Positions 13,349 through 32,586 of a stretch of 33,206 nucleotides of DNA are shown here, one piece after another (position 1 is the first letter of the stretch; each line of letters starts with the position of its first letter). The translations under genes were made by a program, and so were the position numbers. This DNA is from an uncultured virus (IMG/VR IMGVR_UViG_3300030101_004641) (taxonomy: Duplodnaviria; Heunggongvirae; Uroviricota; Caudoviricetes): IMG/VR virus record IMGVR_UViG_3300030101_004641. One strand, given 5' to 3'. Below the pieces are notes generated by a model. It saw nothing but the letters and a program-made list of their open reading frames with translations. It ran no database searches and was not told the origin of the DNA.

Positions 13349-13495
13349 ATGAGTGGAGATGTAGGTTTACAAAATGAACCAATTATTTTTTATTGTGAGG
13401 AAATGACCGAAACAAAATTAATTCTTTTAAAACATAAAAAAATTAAGATCAAACTTTATAAAAAAGTTATGAAAAACATAGATAAATTAAAATAA
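13349..13495 (+). CDS. small hypothetical protein (48 aa)
   Basis: AGGAGG SD; MSGDVGLQNEPIIFYCEEMTETKLILLKHK... Confidence 0.65.
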   Translation: MSGDVGLQNEPIIFYCEEMTETKLILLKHKKIKIKLYKKVMKNIDKLK

Positions 13496-17073: not shown

Positions 17074-18165
17074 TCAACCTATTGCAGGAGCAGATAGAGC
17101 AACTGATGTAGATTCAGCACAAGCTAGATCAAGAGGGAAATTGTGAGCATTTCTCTCATGCATAACTTCAAAACCTAAGTTAGCTCTGTTAAGAACGTCT
17201 GCCCATGTAGGAACGATCTTACCGTTTGTGTCCACGATAGATTGGTTGAAGTTAAAACCATTTAAGTTAAACGCCATTGTGCAGATACCCATTGAAGTTA
17301 GCCATACGCAAACTACAGGGAATACTGCTAAGAAGAAGTGAAGACTTCTGCTGTTGTTAAATGAAGCGTATTGGAAGATTAAACGACCGAAGTAACCATG
17401 AGCTGCAACGATGTTGTATGTTTCTTCTTCCTGTCCGAACTTGTAGCCATAGTTTTGTGACTCAAGACCGGTTGTTTCTCTGATTAGAGATGAAGTTACA
17501 AGTGATCCATGCATAGCAGAGAATAATGCTCCACCGAACATTCCAGCTACACCAGCCATGTGGAATGGGTGCATAAGAATGTTGTGCTCAGCTTGGAATA
17601 CAAACATGAAGTTGAATGTACCAGAAATACCTAAAGGCATTCCGTCAGAGAAAGATCCCTGTCCAAATGGATAAACTAGAAAAACTGCGAAAGCTGCAGA
17701 TACTGGTGCAGAGTATGCAACACAGATCCAAGGACGCATTCCTAATCTGTAACTAAGTTCCCACTGTCGTCCCATGTAAGCTGAGATACCGATGAGGAAG
17801 TGAAAGATGACCAATTGATATGGTCCGCCATTGTATAGCCACTCGTCAACTGTGAGGGCTTCCCATATTGGGTAGAAGTGGAGTCCGATTGCGTTTGAGC
17901 TTGGAACGACTGCTCCTGAGATGATGTTGTTTCCATATAAGAAAGAACCAGCTACTGGTTCACGAATACCGTCTATGTCTACAGGAGGAGCTGCTATGAA
18001 CGCAATTATGAAGCATGTCGCTGCTGTAAGTAGGCAGGGGATCATTAAAACACCAAACCAACCAACATATAGTCTGTTGTCTGTTGATGTTACCCACTCA
18101 CAGAAGGACTGCCAACCGCCTAACAACTCGGAGTTTTTCCGACGCTGTAGAACTGATGATGCCAT
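17074..18165 (-). CDS. psbA: photosystem II reaction centre protein D1
   Basis: Unmistakable D1 sequence ([22 protein letters not shown] [38 protein letters not shown]); no intron. Confidence 0.99.
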
Positions 18166-18188
18166 AATAGTCCGTTGTAATGAATATT

Positions 18189-18223
18189 AAAAAAGCCATC
18201 TGCGATGACTTAACATAACTATA
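18189..18223 (-). promoter_or_regulatory. putative psbA -10 box and 5' hairpin
   Basis: TATAGT (18218-18223) followed by AAGTCATC-GCA-GATGGCTT stem and a T run. Confidence 0.45.
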
Positions 18224-18251
18224 CAATACAGATGTCTTGGATTCATGACAT

Positions 18252-18273
18252 AAAAAAGAGGGATAAAACCCTC
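18252..18273 (-). terminator. intrinsic terminator of the DUF4278-like gene
   Basis: GAGGG-TTTTAT-CCCTC followed by T6. Confidence 0.7.
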
Positions 18274-18296
18274 AATTTTTCAGTGATAATCACGAC

Positions 18297-18449
18297 TTAT
18301 ACAGATGTCTTCTCGTCTTTATTTCTGATTTCGTAATGATAAACAGAACCACGATAAACATGAGTATTTCTGCCTGGAACTCTGACTAATTTATCATTGT
18401 CTTTGTCCCTTTTTTGATAGGCAATACCACGATAAGTAAATTTTTTCAT
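18297..18449 (-). CDS. DUF4278-like small protein (50 aa)
   Basis: MKKFTYRGIAY...VYRGSVY..., two YRG..Y repeats; has its own promoter and terminator. Confidence 0.75.
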   Translation of the reverse strand: MKKFTYRGIAYQKRDKDNDKLVRVPGRNTHVYRGSVYHYEIRNKDEKTSV

Positions 18450-18473
18450 AGGTCATACCTTGAAGACACTATT

Positions 18474-18501
18474 ACTATAACATTTTTGTATCAATTGCTA
18501 C
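18474..18501 (-). promoter_or_regulatory. NtcA box next to an extended -10 promoter
   Basis: GTA-GCAATTGA-TAC (18488-18501), 8 bp upstream of the -10 hexamer TATAGT (18474-18479), which is preceded by TGn. Confidence 0.7.
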
Positions 18502-18554
18502 CGTTTATGAAGATACATTAAATATTAAGAAAACATTAAAATATCTTATATGTC

Positions 18555-18593
18555 AAAAAGAATCCCCTCTCTGTTGTTCAGGCAGAAAGGGGA
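18555..18593 (-). terminator. intrinsic terminator closing the candidate ncRNA
   Basis: 11-bp stem 18563-18573/18583-18593 (G-U only on minus), then TTCTTTTT. Confidence 0.7.
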
Positions 18594-18866
18594 AACCAAT
18601 TTTAATTACAAACTAAATTTAGAACCTAGACGTACTAAATTTAATCGCCTGAGTTAACTACTCTCAGTATCACAATTACTAGGAGGTAGCTGTGAATAAA
18701 TACATATTGGCAAGAAAAGTCTAAAAGTAAGACTTTAGTTAACAATATGTAATAAAGAGGAGTCGCACCACCTCTGTTCCTTGGCAATGCGATCGTTTAC
18801 TGGATGTAAGAAACAGTAAAAATTACATCCTCCTCTGGGGCTACCACTGTTCTTCTTCGCCCCTGT
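18555..18866 (-). ncRNA. candidate multi-domain structured RNA (~310 nt, or two RNAs)
   Basis: About ten helices in an ORF-free interval ending in a terminator. Confidence 0.55.
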
Positions 18867-18903
18867 CCTATAATAATATTAATAATTAAATTTACCACCC
18901 CAA

Positions 18904-19134
18904 GTGACAACTGTTTTTAAACCAAAATTGATTGGTAGTGTTGCCGTTGATTCTGGTATTATTTCAGTTATTGATCCTGTTCACATAAAAGTAGATAATG
19001 GTGGCTCAATTAGATTACCTAGTTATAATTTGTATACATCTATAAACACGGAAATTGGCGATGGCGAATACAACATCTACGAATGCAGAGATGACAAAGG
19101 AGGACTTCGAAAAATCATTATTGATATCAACTAA
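18904..19134 (+). CDS. DUF4241-like hypothetical protein
   Basis: IG.V.VDSG.I...DP ... IGDGEY.IY motif; GTG start. Confidence 0.65.
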   Translation: MTTVFKPKLIGSVAVDSGIISVIDPVHIKVDNGGSIRLPSYNLYTSINTEIGDGEYNIYECRDDKGGLRKIIIDIN

Positions 19135-20153: not shown

Positions 20154-20381
20154 ATGCAATTTGGATATGTTTTATGTGATCCTAAACGATCAAAAGTTCT
20201 TGTACTTACGAAACAAAACCAAGTAGAATTTATTACAACCAAAAACAAAGATAATATTAATAAAGCTTTTTGTTTAAGAGACATGTCTTCAATAAAATCT
20301 TTATATTATGCACTAAAAGAAAAGAAATTAGTTGACAACCTTGATATAGTGAATATCCAGGAACTTTATAGAAAAACGTAA
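20154..20381 (+). CDS. hypothetical protein
   Basis: 75 aa; TAATG coupling to the polymerase. Confidence 0.7.
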   Translation: MQFGYVLCDPKRSKVLVLTKQNQVEFITTKNKDNINKAFCLRDMSSIKSLYYALKEKKLVDNLDIVNIQELYRKT

Positions 20382-22216
20382 TGTTAAGGTTCGTATTTGA
20401 CTGTGAGACTAATGGTCTTCTCCATGAATTAGATACTGTGCATTCCTTAGTTTTAAGAGATATAGATTCTGGTGATGTCACAAGTTGTTCAGATCATGAT
20501 GGATACGAGCCTGTAGAAAATGGTCTTTATATGCTTTCACAAGCGGATTTACTTGTAGGACATAATATTATAAATTTTGATTTTAGAGCTTTAAAAAAAG
20601 TTTATAAATATTTTAAATTAAAAAAAGATTGCAAAATAAATGATACGTTAATTGTTAGCAGAGTTCTTTCACCTGAAATGGAACCTGTTGATGAATCAAA
20701 GTTTTCACATATACCTTCTAAATATAAAGGAAAACACTCATTAGCTGCTTGGGGTGAGAGATTAAACGTGAAAAAAATAAATTTTGAAGGGGCTGATAAA
20801 TACGAAGAAAGATGGGATATATGGTCAGAAGAAATGCAAAAGTATTGTGAGGGAGATACATTAGTTTCTTTAGAACTTTTTAATTATTTCCAAACTCAAT
20901 TTTTAGATCCAAGATGTTCATGTTTAGAACATGATTTTGCCAGAATAATGGCAAGACAAGAGTCATTTGGTTTTCCTTTCGATGAAAAGAAAGCTTTTGC
21001 ATTAGTCAATAATTTAAAAACAAGAAGAAGAGAGATAGATGACGAATTACAATCTGTATTCCCTCCAATATCAGAAGAAAGATTTTCTGAAAAAACAGGT
21101 AAAAAATTAAAAACAAAAGTCACACAATTCAATCCAGCATCTAGAAAACAAACTTATGAAAGATTAAAAGCTAAATATCCTGAAATAAGATTTGCTCATA
21201 CTCAAAAGGGTAACGTCAAATTAGATGATGATGTATTAGACAAGTTAGGTAAAAAATATCCTGAAGCTAAATTATTATCTGAATATCAAATGTTAAATAA
21301 AAGATTAGGTCAAATATCGGAAGGCAAGGAGGCTTGGCTAAAGCATAGTCAAAAATATGGTGATGGACGTATTCATGGATCAGTTATTACAAATGCTTGC
21401 GTGTCTGGAAGAGCATCTCATCGGGGTCCAAATGTAGCCCAAATTCCGAGAGTGGGTCAACCATATGGTGCAGAGTGTAGATCTTTATTTTATGCCCCTC
21501 ATGGATGGAGACAAGTTGGGTGTGATGCATCTGGTCTTGAGTTAAGAGGACTTGGTGCTCAACTTGCTTATTTTGATGATGGAGAATATGCAAAATTAGT
21601 TAGTATGCCAGGTTTCGATATTCATACTCATAATGCCAAATTGTTTGGAATATATGATGGTCAAGGAAAAATAGAAAAACGGATAAGAGAACAAGCAAAA
21701 ACACTAATTTACGCAGTTCTGTATGGGGCTGGGGCACAAAAATTAGGTACTATTCTTAATCCAAGTTTAGGACAACATGATCAACAAGATTTAGGAAGAG
21801 AAACAATTGACACGTTTTATAAAAATTTACCAGCGATTAAAAAATTAAAAGATAAAGTTGATGAACGAGTAACAAAAAGAGGTTACTTAATTGGTATAGA
21901 TGGTAGGCATTTACAAATTAGATCAAGACATTCAGCTTTAAATCAATTGTTACAGTCAACTGGAAGTCTATGTGTAAAAAAAGCAACGTGTATTCTCTAT
22001 GAGGATTGTAAGAATAATCATTTAAGATGGGGAATCCATTATGCATTCGTGGCACATATCCATGATGAGATACAAGCCTTAGTAAAACCTCAACATGTTA
22101 GCCTCTACAGTAAACTCGCAGTGGATTGTTTTCGAAAATCAGGAGAGTATTTTAAATTACGATGCCCTTTGACAGGGGAAGTAAATGAAGGAAAAAACTG
22201 GATGGAGACACATTAA
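20381..22216 (+). CDS. polA: family A DNA polymerase, T7-like, with 3'-5' exonuclease
   Basis: ExoI FDCETNGL, ExoII GHNIINFD, ExoIII YCEGD; motif A DASGLELR, motif B REQAKTLIYAVLYG, motif C HIHDEIQ. Confidence 0.95.
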   Translation: MLRFVFDCETNGLLHELDTVHSLVLRDIDSGDVTSCSDHDGYEPVENGLYMLSQADLLVGHNIINFDFRALKKVYKYFKLKKDCKINDTLIVSRVLSPEMEPVDESKFSHIPSKYKGKHSLAAWGERLNVKKINFEGADKYEERWDIWSEEMQKYCEGDTLVSLELFNYFQTQFLDPRCSCLEHDFARIMARQESFGFPFDEKKAFALVNNLKTRRREIDDELQSVFPPISEERFSEKTGKKLKTKVTQFNPASRKQTYERLKAKYPEIRFAHTQKGNVKLDDDVLDKLGKKYPEAKLLSEYQMLNKRLGQISEGKEAWLKHSQKYGDGRIHGSVITNACVSGRASHRGPNVAQIPRVGQPYGAECRSLFYAPHGWRQVGCDASGLELRGLGAQLAYFDDGEYAKLVSMPGFDIHTHNAKLFGIYDGQGKIEKRIREQAKTLIYAVLYGAGAQKLGTILNPSLGQHDQQDLGRETIDTFYKNLPAIKKLKDKVDERVTKRGYLIGIDGRHLQIRSRHSALNQLLQSTGSLCVKKATCILYEDCKNNHLRWGIHYAFVAHIHDEIQALVKPQHVSLYSKLAVDCFRKSGEYFKLRCPLTGEVNEGKNWMETH

Positions 22217-22414: not shown

Positions 22415-22780
22415 ATGTTTAACAAACTTTTATTGGCAGGTGCAGCTTGCTGTAGTCTGTCAGCTCCTGCTTTCGCAGGCTTCTATTTAAATGGTGAATT
22501 CAACCAGACAAATGTTGGAAGTGAGTGGAATGGTAATGGCATTGACCTTCATGTCGGTTACGAAGATTCAGTGGGAGAAAAGGGTTCTTACTACTTACAA
22601 GGTGGACCTTACATAGATAACGCTAAAGATGCTGACTCTGAAACAAGATTTTCAGCTAAAGTTGGCGGTGGATATGACTTCAGACCTAATACAAATCTAT
22701 ATGGTGAGCTATCTGTAGTTACAAATGATACAACAGACAACACATGGGGTACAAAACTAGGGGTCAAATATAATTTCTAA
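22415..22780 (+). CDS. small outer-membrane beta-barrel-like protein (picocyanobacterial/cyanophage type)
   Basis: Signal peptide ending APAFA, alternating beta strands, terminal GTKLGVKYNF. Confidence 0.8.
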   Translation: MFNKLLLAGAACCSLSAPAFAGFYLNGEFNQTNVGSEWNGNGIDLHVGYEDSVGEKGSYYLQGGPYIDNAKDADSETRFSAKVGGGYDFRPNTNLYGELSVVTNDTTDNTWGTKLGVKYNF

Positions 22781-31164: not shown

Positions 31165-31356
31165 ATGACAACAGTTACAGAAAGTGGCGGTCGCCAAAAC
31201 ATCTATTCAGTTGAACCTGTCACTGATGTTGACCCGAATTATCAAGGCTATCCAGAAGAGGCTGAAAAAGCCAATGGACGCTGGGCAATGATCGGTTTTG
31301 TAGCTTTATTAGGTGCTTATTCAACAACAGGTCAGATTATTCCTGGCATTTTTTAA
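31165..31356 (+). CDS. hli: high-light inducible protein
   Basis: AEKANGRWAMIGF...TGQIIPGIF. Confidence 0.95.
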   Translation: MTTVTESGGRQNIYSVEPVTDVDPNYQGYPEEAEKANGRWAMIGFVALLGAYSTTGQIIPGIF

Positions 31357-31376
31357 ATTAAAACCCCTTTTTTATC

Positions 31377-31484
31377 ATGACTCCTGAAGCAGAAAGATTT
31401 AACGGCTGGGCAGCAATGCTTGGATTCGTAGCAGCAGTTGGTGCTTACGCAACAACAGGTAATATAATTCCTGGAATATTCTAA
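31377..31484 (+). CDS. hli: high-light inducible protein (35 aa)
   Basis: MTPEAERFNGWAAMLGFVAAVGAYATTGNIIPGIF*. Confidence 0.95.
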   Translation: MTPEAERFNGWAAMLGFVAAVGAYATTGNIIPGIF

Positions 31485-31597
31485 TGAATAATAAAGATAT
31501 ATTTTTTAAAGCACAAGGACGAGCAGCAATGATGGGTTTCATCATTATCTGCACAGTTTATGGCTTAACAGGTCAATTAATTCCAGGCTTTGTGTAA
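31484..31597 (+). CDS. hli: divergent high-light inducible protein (37 aa)
   Basis: MNNKDIFFKAQGRAAMMGF...TGQLIPGFV*. Confidence 0.85.
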   Translation: MNNKDIFFKAQGRAAMMGFIIICTVYGLTGQLIPGFV

Positions 31598-31740
31598 TGG
31601 ATATTCAATCTTATTCTAAACCAATCGAAAAGCAAAAAATAATTGCTGAAAGATTAAATGGACAATTAGCAATGTTAGGTGTTGTTGCTGCAGTTGGTGC
31701 TTACCTAACTACAGGTCAATTAATACCTGGATTTATTTAA
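31597..31740 (+). CDS. hli: high-light inducible protein (47 aa)
   Basis: AERLNGQLAMLG...TGQLIPGFI*. Confidence 0.95.
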   Translation: MDIQSYSKPIEKQKIIAERLNGQLAMLGVVAAVGAYLTTGQLIPGFI

Positions 31741-31907
31741 TGGGATTTGAAGATCCTTATTCAATCCCCTCTTCTATGGCAGTACTATGGGTTTTATATC
31801 CCATAGGCTCTCTAGTTTTAATAGAACTAATACTTAGAGCTATCGACGATGATGATGATGATCAAGGCGGTGGCGTTATGTCTCCTGTTTATCAACCAAT
31901 ACGATGA
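31740..31907 (+). CDS. small membrane protein with DDDDDDQGGG motif (55 aa)
   Basis: TAATG coupling; TM helix then poly-Asp-GGG.M.P. Confidence 0.8.
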   Translation: MGFEDPYSIPSSMAVLWVLYPIGSLVLIELILRAIDDDDDDQGGGVMSPVYQPIR

Positions 31908-32244: not shown

Positions 32245-32586
32245 TTATTTATTGTGTTTATGCTGAGGATAATCTTTTTCCATAGCTTTTTTAGATAAAT
32301 TAGGTCTTGCACCACCACCTTCATGTCCGTGAGCAATCCCTAATTCGTGTAATCTAGAATGCTCTTTAATTTCATCTCTTAAATCTTTACCACCTTTACC
32401 AAAAGTCATATAAATACCATAAATCATTAAAAATAAAACTAAAAATCCAAGAAAAACAGCAAAAGCAGCTCCCTGTCCTAAATGTCCATGAGGTATTAAA
32501 GTATCATTACAACGTGCGATTTTATCTTGATCAATCCAAGTTCCTGGTAAAGTATAAACAGGAGGACATGATAAGAAATAATTCAT
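32245..32586 (-). CDS. psbN: PsbN-like protein with N- and C-terminal extensions
   Basis: TM helix followed by YGIYMTFGKGGKDLRDEIKEH (PsbN: Y..Y..FG..S..LRDPFEEH). Confidence 0.7.
   Translation of the reverse strand: MNYFLSCPPVYTLPGTWIDQDKIARCNDTLIPHGHLGQGAAFAVFLGFLVLFLMIYGIYMTFGKGGKDLRDEIKEHSRLHELGIAHGHEGGGARPNLSKKAMEKDYPQHKHNK

Follow-up and report, generated by a model that had tools for sequence, protein, structure and literature searches.

Several bacterial small RNAs (sRNAs) carry C/U-rich loops that pair with Shine-Dalgarno (SD) regions, among them S. aureus RNAIII and RsaE/RoxS, and the cyanobacterial Yfr1 carries a ACUCCUCACAC motif of the same C/U-rich, SD-pairing kind. The manA RNA motif (RF01745) occurs in marine metagenomes and in cyanophages. 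The regulatory RNAs of phages are poorly known, above all those of uncultured marine phages. In marine picocyanobacteria, units that combine Yfr6/type 2 glutamine riboswitches with genes for DUF4278 (IF17-like) proteins have been described (PMC6212724, PMC2864571).

The locus considered here belongs to a stretch of 33,206 nucleotides from an uncultured virus (IMG/VR record IMGVR_UViG_3300030101_004641), referred to below, at its full length, as the window. A sequence-only reading of the window had flagged a chain of hairpins at 18555-18751 and proposed that its minus-strand transcript is an sRNA displaying an anti-SD loop. The hairpin chain was found to be a real minus-strand RNA domain, and a 108-nt RNA core beside it is the most solid new feature at the locus. 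On balance, the flagged stretch appears to be the lineage-specific 3′ domain of a minus-strand non-coding RNA of ~310 nt, a reading to which we give slightly better than even credence. The new core RNA adjoins photosynthesis (psbA) and nitrogen-control-type genes (DUF4278/IF17-like, NtcA site, glutamine riboswitch), as set out below.

Genomic setting

Besides psbA and a gene for a family A DNA polymerase (Table 1), the window encodes a primase-helicase, an SSB, an exonuclease, and further phage genes. Searches with blastn and megablast revealed psbA as the sole DNA-level match to cultured phages, the DNA polymerase reaches no more than 43% identity with those of isolates, and the IMG/VR relatives are contigs of 69-87 kb, one of which carries terminal repeats. 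From this we conclude that the window belongs to an uncultured cyanophage of ~80 kb.

The flagged element sits in a 454-bp intergenic gap between divergent gene blocks. The leftward block beside the gap consists of a 50-aa DUF4278-like gene followed by psbA, and the rightward block opens with a conserved 76-aa gene at 18904. A TYRG-type small ORF is present at the DUF4278 position in the relatives. According to PMC6212724, DUF4278 proteins are IF17-like, and GTA-N8-TAC is an NtcA site, whose position near a -10 box means repression, as for gifB. In the window, GTA-N8-TAC lies 8 nt before the TATAGT box, the spacing given for the left block being 7-8 nt, and the TAnnnT box of this block precedes the DUF4278 start by ~25 nt. 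The same GTA-N8-TAC element was found downstream of the RNA core in 25 of 35 relatives. Judged by its sequence, the element before DUF4278 is an NtcA-type site in a repressor-like position.

Glutamine riboswitches were found upstream of DUF4278 in relatives, belonging to Glutamine-II in L001 (996-1053) and L056 (1019-1077), and to the Glutamine riboswitch family in L020 (4237-4317) and L076 (444-501). Neither family (RF01739, RF01704) matched the window at Rfam gathering thresholds, or at E ≤ 10 over 18150-19000, and the DUF4278 leader of the window is short.

Terminator-like hairpins were observed between the DUF4278 gene and psbA (18258-18273 and 18193-18211), as was a second TATAGT box (18218-18223, minus); psbA may have a promoter of its own. 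Elsewhere in the window, positions 31165-31907 hold a tandem array of three to four short ORFs, the ends of which are repeated (direct repeat families D1 and D2) and whose repeated peptide we take to resemble high-light-inducible proteins. A weak PsbN-like match (PF02468, E 7e-4, below cutoff) was seen at 32245-32586 (minus), and a gene for a cyanophage outer-membrane-protein-like beta-barrel (PF24653, E 2e-32) lies at 22415-22780. The GC-skew minimum at 18-19 kb was rejected as evidence for an origin, as it tracks the switch in gene orientation and is not independent of it.

Table 1. Features of the intergenic RNA locus and neighbouring genes, in window coordinates
Feature	Position	Strand	Basis or remark
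psbA	17074-18165	minus	
DUF4278 (IF17-like) small protein gene	18297-18449	minus	weak matches: PF14105, E 9e-4 (below cutoff); phrog_5049, 6e-5
Putative DUF4278 promoter: GTA-N8-TAC 18488-18501, -10 box TATAGT 18474-18479	18474-18501	minus	sequence
Intrinsic terminator, 9-nt loop, U tract 18555-18563	18555-18593	minus	fold, own scan, 16 variants
H4, long AU hairpin	~18611-18646	minus	MFE fold; only the window and L230
H3, 5-bp hairpin, lineage-specific	18649-18667 (18649-18653/18663-18667)	minus	MFE fold; relatives differ
H2, hairpin with loop CUCCUA (18680-18685)	18670-18695	minus	fold and 16 tail variants
H1, long AU-rich hairpin, then UUUAUU	18701-18751	minus	MFE fold, wobble in variants
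Pseudoknotted RNA core, 108 nt	18756-18863	minus	covariance model R1, covariation
Core helix P1	18756-61/18831-36	minus	
Core helix P2	18762-67/18788-93	minus	
Core helix P3	18802-09/18823-30	minus	
Core helix P4	18837-41/18859-63	minus	
Core loop-loop pseudoknot, 6 bp	18812-17 with 18846-51	minus	
Symmetric -10 box TATAATA	18869-18875	both	TATAAT on plus (76-aa gene at 18904), TATTAT on minus
Family A DNA polymerase gene	20381-22216		

The conserved RNA core

The core is laid out as three junction helices and a 5′ hairpin, the loop of which kisses the loop of P3, and it contains unpaired bases that are invariant. Many compensating changes are seen in the alignment for the four helices and the pseudoknot. 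Among 35 distinct sequences, 90.9% of the cells at core pairs are paired; shuffles give 69.3%, and sliding the partners gives 49.4% or less. Changes on both sides were found in 28 of the 33 pairs. Covariation, which the sequence-only reading had proposed to examine, is present in the core beside the flagged stretch. Because the nested helices guided the fitting of the alignment, the fairer tests are the slid controls and the pseudoknot, which lies outside the model, is paired in 99.5% of the cells, and covaries at three of its six pairs.

Covariance model R1 matched 25 of 48 sources, as well as 34 of 80 further viral loci, which had been picked by a loose motif. In all five near-complete records of 69-87 kb, the core is present in one copy per record. 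Among cellular genome contigs, the best model score was 25.7 bits, taken over the first 80 of at least 120 pattern matches. A cmscan search, also suggested earlier, returned no Rfam family at gathering thresholds across the whole window; at E ≤ 10, no matches were obtained over 18735-18890 and just nine sub-threshold, chance-like matches over 18150-19000. ARAGORN found no tRNA or tmRNA, and none of the titles listed from the literature on cyanophage small RNAs and pseudoknots pointed to a description of this RNA. The core is a new, well-supported structured RNA without an Rfam 15 model, found throughout the cyanophage lineage; the comparison is with Rfam 15, and the more than 10,000 candidate viral RNAs reported in PMC10690425 stand outside it.

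Folding of the hairpin chain

The helices listed in the sequence-only reading were reproduced in the minus-strand minimum free energy (MFE) fold of 18555-18751. The energy of this fold is -59.7 kcal/mol, compared to -35.7 ± 4.1 for 200 dinucleotide shuffles (z = -5.9), none of which was as good, and the plus-strand fold is weaker (-54.2, z = -5.1). H1 has an outer stem, 18701-18709/18743-18751, which encloses a second one, 18716-18722/18730-18736, and it holds the invariant UUGCCAAUAU at 18704-18713. H2 is built of a stem, 18670-18675/18690-18695, and an inner 3-bp stem. The display of ACCUCCU that had been proposed for H2 holds in part: the loop is real and its open part is CUCCUA, but the A and the first C are paired in the inner stem. 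When the 319 nt from the predicted start to the terminator were folded together (z = -5.1), the core helices and H1-H4 formed separate domains, and the core helices agreed with those derived comparatively. In minus sense, UUGCCAA occurs twice, in the P2 loop of the core (18781-18787) and in the UUGCCAAUAU motif of the tail; it may be a repeated binding site.

The terminator predicted at the end of the chain is present at 18563-18593. Its stem (18564-73/18583-92 with a closing pair) comprises 11 bp, has four G-C pairs at its base, and is followed by AUUCUUUUU. On the minus strand the U tract comes directly after the stem, and on the plus strand no U tract stands directly behind it. The consensus terminator scan skipped this hairpin, since it allowed a maximum loop of 8 nt and the loop here has 9, and our own scan found it. 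The stem is kept in all 16 tail variants, and its 5′ strand varies solely between C and U opposite G, which amounts to wobble on the minus strand alone.

Variation of the tail among relatives

With the polymerase as anchor, 47 related loci were gathered, and ~50 related contigs were compared overall. The gap was found to consist of three parts. The right block (18752-18880) was detected by nhmmer in 24 of the 47 loci, and sequence search recovered the left block (18460-18545) from fewer loci. Of the flagged middle, L005 alone has the whole, L004 has a part, and L001 has just the terminator. Because the left and right blocks are adjacent in L002, L026, L024, and L017, the hairpin chain is an insert in one sub-lineage.

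In L056, the polymerase of which is 90% identical to that of the window, the same terminator directly abuts the core, there is no tail, and on its far side the terminator meets the stop of a convergent ORF of 63 aa. The slot between core and terminator is occupied in L001 by a manA RNA (RF01745, 1685-1876, minus; 172 bits) on the same strand, with a convergent ORF beyond the terminator, and L199, L203, and L204 carry manA in the same slot, as judged by sequence likeness to L001. In L001, manA thus lies inside a terminated non-coding transcript and not in a 5′-UTR, which bears on the function of manA. The tail of the window gave no match to manA, either at the gathering threshold or at E ≤ 10 over 18150-19000. 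The CCUCC at the 3′ end of the L001 manA was considered as a displayed anti-SD sequence and rejected, as it is paired in the closing helix of manA.

Different small ORFs with a common upstream region were observed in L056 (1301-1492) and L001 (1175-1636; both plus, in locus orientation), where they are convergent with the RNA and, as insertions, separate the DUF4278 promoter from the terminator. Their site looks like a moron-type cassette slot.

A metagenome scan with a terminator 16-mer yielded ~20 related loci among the 120 listed, most of the others being chance matches. The H2-type module was found in 16 loci, including the window, L004, and L005; these variants are close relatives of modest divergence, and L230, being 99% identical to the window, is not independent. 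Free variation of the loop in homologues, named in the sequence-only reading as a refuting outcome, was not seen for H2: CCUCC is present in 16 of 16 and the loop CUCCUA in 15 of 16, with the stems changing. The hairpin is predicted with CUCC unpaired in every variant, with the inner stem changing from UAC/GUA to GC/GC, and H2 is the sole tail hairpin kept across all 16, H1, H3, and H4 being replaced by other hairpins in relatives. Upstream of H2, UGCCAAUAU is nearly invariant, and variants with a different hairpin in the place of H1 keep it nonetheless. A search of viral contigs with the exact H2 24-mer gave no matches. Within the tail, selection acts on H2 (CUCCUA), the UUGCCAAUAU motif, and the terminator only; H1, H3, and H4 are interchangeable and probably have a role only in folding or stability. 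The series of tails (none, hairpin chain, manA) reveals the selected parts and supplies natural experimental controls.

Strand, transcription start, and expression

In their plus-strand reading, helices P3 and P4 together with the pseudoknot contain 28 A·C compared to 1 G·T among 659 non-gap cells. These A·C combinations are G·U pairs on the minus strand, and the core RNA is, therefore, minus-sense. For H1, the 95 cells of five window-type variants, read in minus sense, comprise 82 Watson-Crick pairs, 11 G·U, and 1 A·C, and the changes proceed stepwise through C-G, U·G, and U-A. The earlier argument that G-U pairs favour the minus strand holds, and is strengthened by the wobble asymmetry of the relatives in the core, H1, and the terminator. 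The proposed minus-strand RNA is borne out by this asymmetry, by the polarity of the terminator, and by the conserved upstream -10 box and core.

In 34 of 35 distinct relatives, the RNA strand has a TAnnnT box that ends 5-8 nt ahead of the first helix. As a symmetric element (TAnnnTA), this box also occurs on the plus strand in 33 of the 35; in L113 and L013 it is missing from the expected place on that strand. By its sequence, it is a candidate promoter of the minus-strand RNA that would also serve the divergent plus-strand gene. The RNA would start at ~18863, and core and tail would be co-transcribed. Metatranscriptome contigs from relatives ~85-93% alike covered the core in four of four runs (three studies) and the terminator in three of the four, although such contigs show neither strand nor ends and may reflect DNA carry-over. 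The chain (18597-18738) was covered in none of the four runs, the contigs of which stem from relatives with other tails, so that this gap does not speak against expression.

The CCUCC loop

From the likeness of the loop to the 16S anti-SD, the sequence-only reading had proposed an sRNA that shuts down SD-led mRNAs, the loop being complementary to the AGGAGG sites of the early genes. AGGAGG was found upstream of only 3 of the 69 predicted ORFs in the window, and a 4-mer SD core upstream of 18 of the 69. When the H2 seed was paired with the 69 start regions of the window, its best energy was -16.5 kcal/mol, compared to a mean minimum of -15.1 for shuffled seeds, and shuffled seeds equalled H2 in best energy in 44 of 200 cases and in mean energy in 79 of 200. 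The start regions that paired best were those of the ORFs at 13349 and 2459. Given the scarcity of SD sites, pairing no better than that of shuffled seeds, and close relatives without the chain, a global shut-down of SD-led mRNAs is unlikely.

The conservation of the loop, while the stems vary, argues for a sequence-specific role. The C/U-rich loop of H2 might serve, like the C-rich loops of other sRNAs, as a seed that pairs with a purine-rich, SD-like site in one or a few mRNAs, a suggestion that we put forward tentatively and regard as possible, though somewhat unlikely. If the CCUCC loop is such a seed, the phage would be using a known bacterial sRNA principle.

Proposed mechanism and alternative explanations

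In the reading favoured here, that of a single minus-strand RNA made of core and tail, transcription would start at ~18863, just past the symmetric -10 box held in common with the divergent plus-strand gene, and the RNA would first fold its conserved 108-nt core. The transcript would then traverse H1-H4 and stop at the terminator, with its U tract extending to 18555. The H2 loop might act as an mRNA-specific seed, and not as a general blocker of ribosome sites, and the predicted terminator would insulate the NtcA-type promoter of the DUF4278-psbA genes.

It is conceivable that the core acts as a leader, either riboswitch-like or bound by a protein, with the terminator as its expression platform, so that read-through controls DUF4278 and psbA and the chain is a spacer. 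The core begins at the predicted transcript start, and has a junction, a pseudoknot, and invariant unpaired bases; in most relatives, a DUF4278 gene comes next on the same strand; the terminator comes no more than 5 nt after the core in L056 and L105; and the first strong terminator of many relatives lies beyond the DUF4278 ORF. An ORF follows the core in L014, and most of the distant relatives show no clear terminator between the core and the DUF4278 promoter. By eye, the 5′ strand of P1, CAGAGGAGG, could also pair with the 5′ strand of the terminator, forming an anti-terminator. However, no ligand is suggested, an ORF on the opposite strand separates the terminator from DUF4278 in L001 and L056, and those two loci, like L020 and L076, have a separate glutamine riboswitch before the gene. 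The leader explanation is weakened because DUF4278 has its own conserved promoter, shielded by the terminator, and we judge it unlikely. About equally improbable, in our view, is a tail that forms a separate small RNA, comprising H2-H4 and the terminator and starting near UUGCCAAUAU (~18712) from a promoter in or after H1. A terminator-like hairpin with a U tract parts core and H1 in 4 of the 16 variants (L187, L210, L264, and L290), and the tail of these would need read-through or a promoter of its own; UUGCCAAUAU, close by on the upstream side of H2, hardly varies, and in the window, TTGTTA-16 nt-TAGACT ends ~7 nt before this motif. Against this, the other tail types do not preserve the spacing of the -35 and -10 elements (12-19 nt, by eye), the terminator of L056 belongs to the core alone, and the wobble evolution of H1 is of the RNA type, which indicates that H1 is transcribed.

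The chain has also been considered as a feature of the DNA itself, such as an origin, a cruciform, or a recombination scar, or as a neutral insert at a recombination hot spot, in either case without a function of its own as RNA. The slot between the core and the DUF4278 promoter is highly variable, holding ORFs, manA RNA, hairpins, or nothing, and the site lies between divergent gene blocks near replication genes. Yet H1, H2, and the terminator show strand-specific wobble and compensatory changes, the loop of H2 is invariant with changing stems, and a bias of G·T to one strand is not expected of DNA hairpins, which leaves this explanation less probable than either of the preceding ones. The sequence-only reading had itself offered a plus-strand alternative, in which AGGAGG leads a 10-residue peptide (MNKYILARKV) and the hairpins are its antisense or leader. 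AGGAGG-N5-GTG, with its good spacing, and the 10-codon frame at 18692-18724 do exist on the plus strand, and L004 has a similar start (VYKFILAK). However, the GTG is GTT in 8 of the 16 variants, the frames behind a kept GTG differ in length (4, 10, 13, or more than 20 codons), a plus-strand promoter is not apparent, a terminator stands between the left block and the ORF, and the wobble pairs fit the minus strand only; a coding function is hardly credible.

The single-RNA reading can be widened to one of a scaffold with exchangeable cargo, to which we assign a low probability. The ~80-kb cyanophage lineage would then carry a single-copy RNA composed of a core, possibly ligand- or protein-binding, and swappable 3′ modules, expressed from a bidirectional promoter. 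In the window, the CCUCC loop would mimic the 16S anti-SD and capture SD-like sites of host or phage, and in a sister phage the module would be manA. If this is true, the anti-SD effector proposed earlier would be one of the warheads carried by a modular phage riboregulator.

Comparison with known RNAs

Like the sRNAs with C/U-rich loops, the phage RNA has an apical C/U motif that is complementary to GGAGG, together with further hairpins and an intrinsic terminator, and this motif stays constant as the stems change. Unlike those sRNAs, it has no target predicted above chance and a single copy of the motif, and this motif is placed in the variable 3′ part, behind a conserved, pseudoknotted 5′ core. 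No similarity, by Rfam sequence or model, connects the phage RNA with these sRNA families.

A likeness to the Cyano-2 RNA (RF01702) was seen in L010, where the first hairpin of Cyano-2 can be aligned with that of P2 in the core, on the strand concluded here for the RNA, although the score of 19 bits (E 0.0078 for a search of 251 nt) is far under the gathering score of 40 and the remainder of the model is unmatched. In the window, no match to Cyano-2 was obtained at E ≤ 10 over 18735-18890. As in the picocyanobacterial units, the neighbouring gene in the window is a DUF4278 gene with GTA-N8-TAC at a repressor-like position; unlike the glutamine riboswitches of those units, the core and tail lie upstream of the DUF4278 promoter, and match neither riboswitch model. 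Whereas the tail of the window is a simple hairpin chain, and not the multi-stem fold of manA, the manA RNA of L001 fills the corresponding slot, flanked by the core and the terminator known from the window and in the same orientation.
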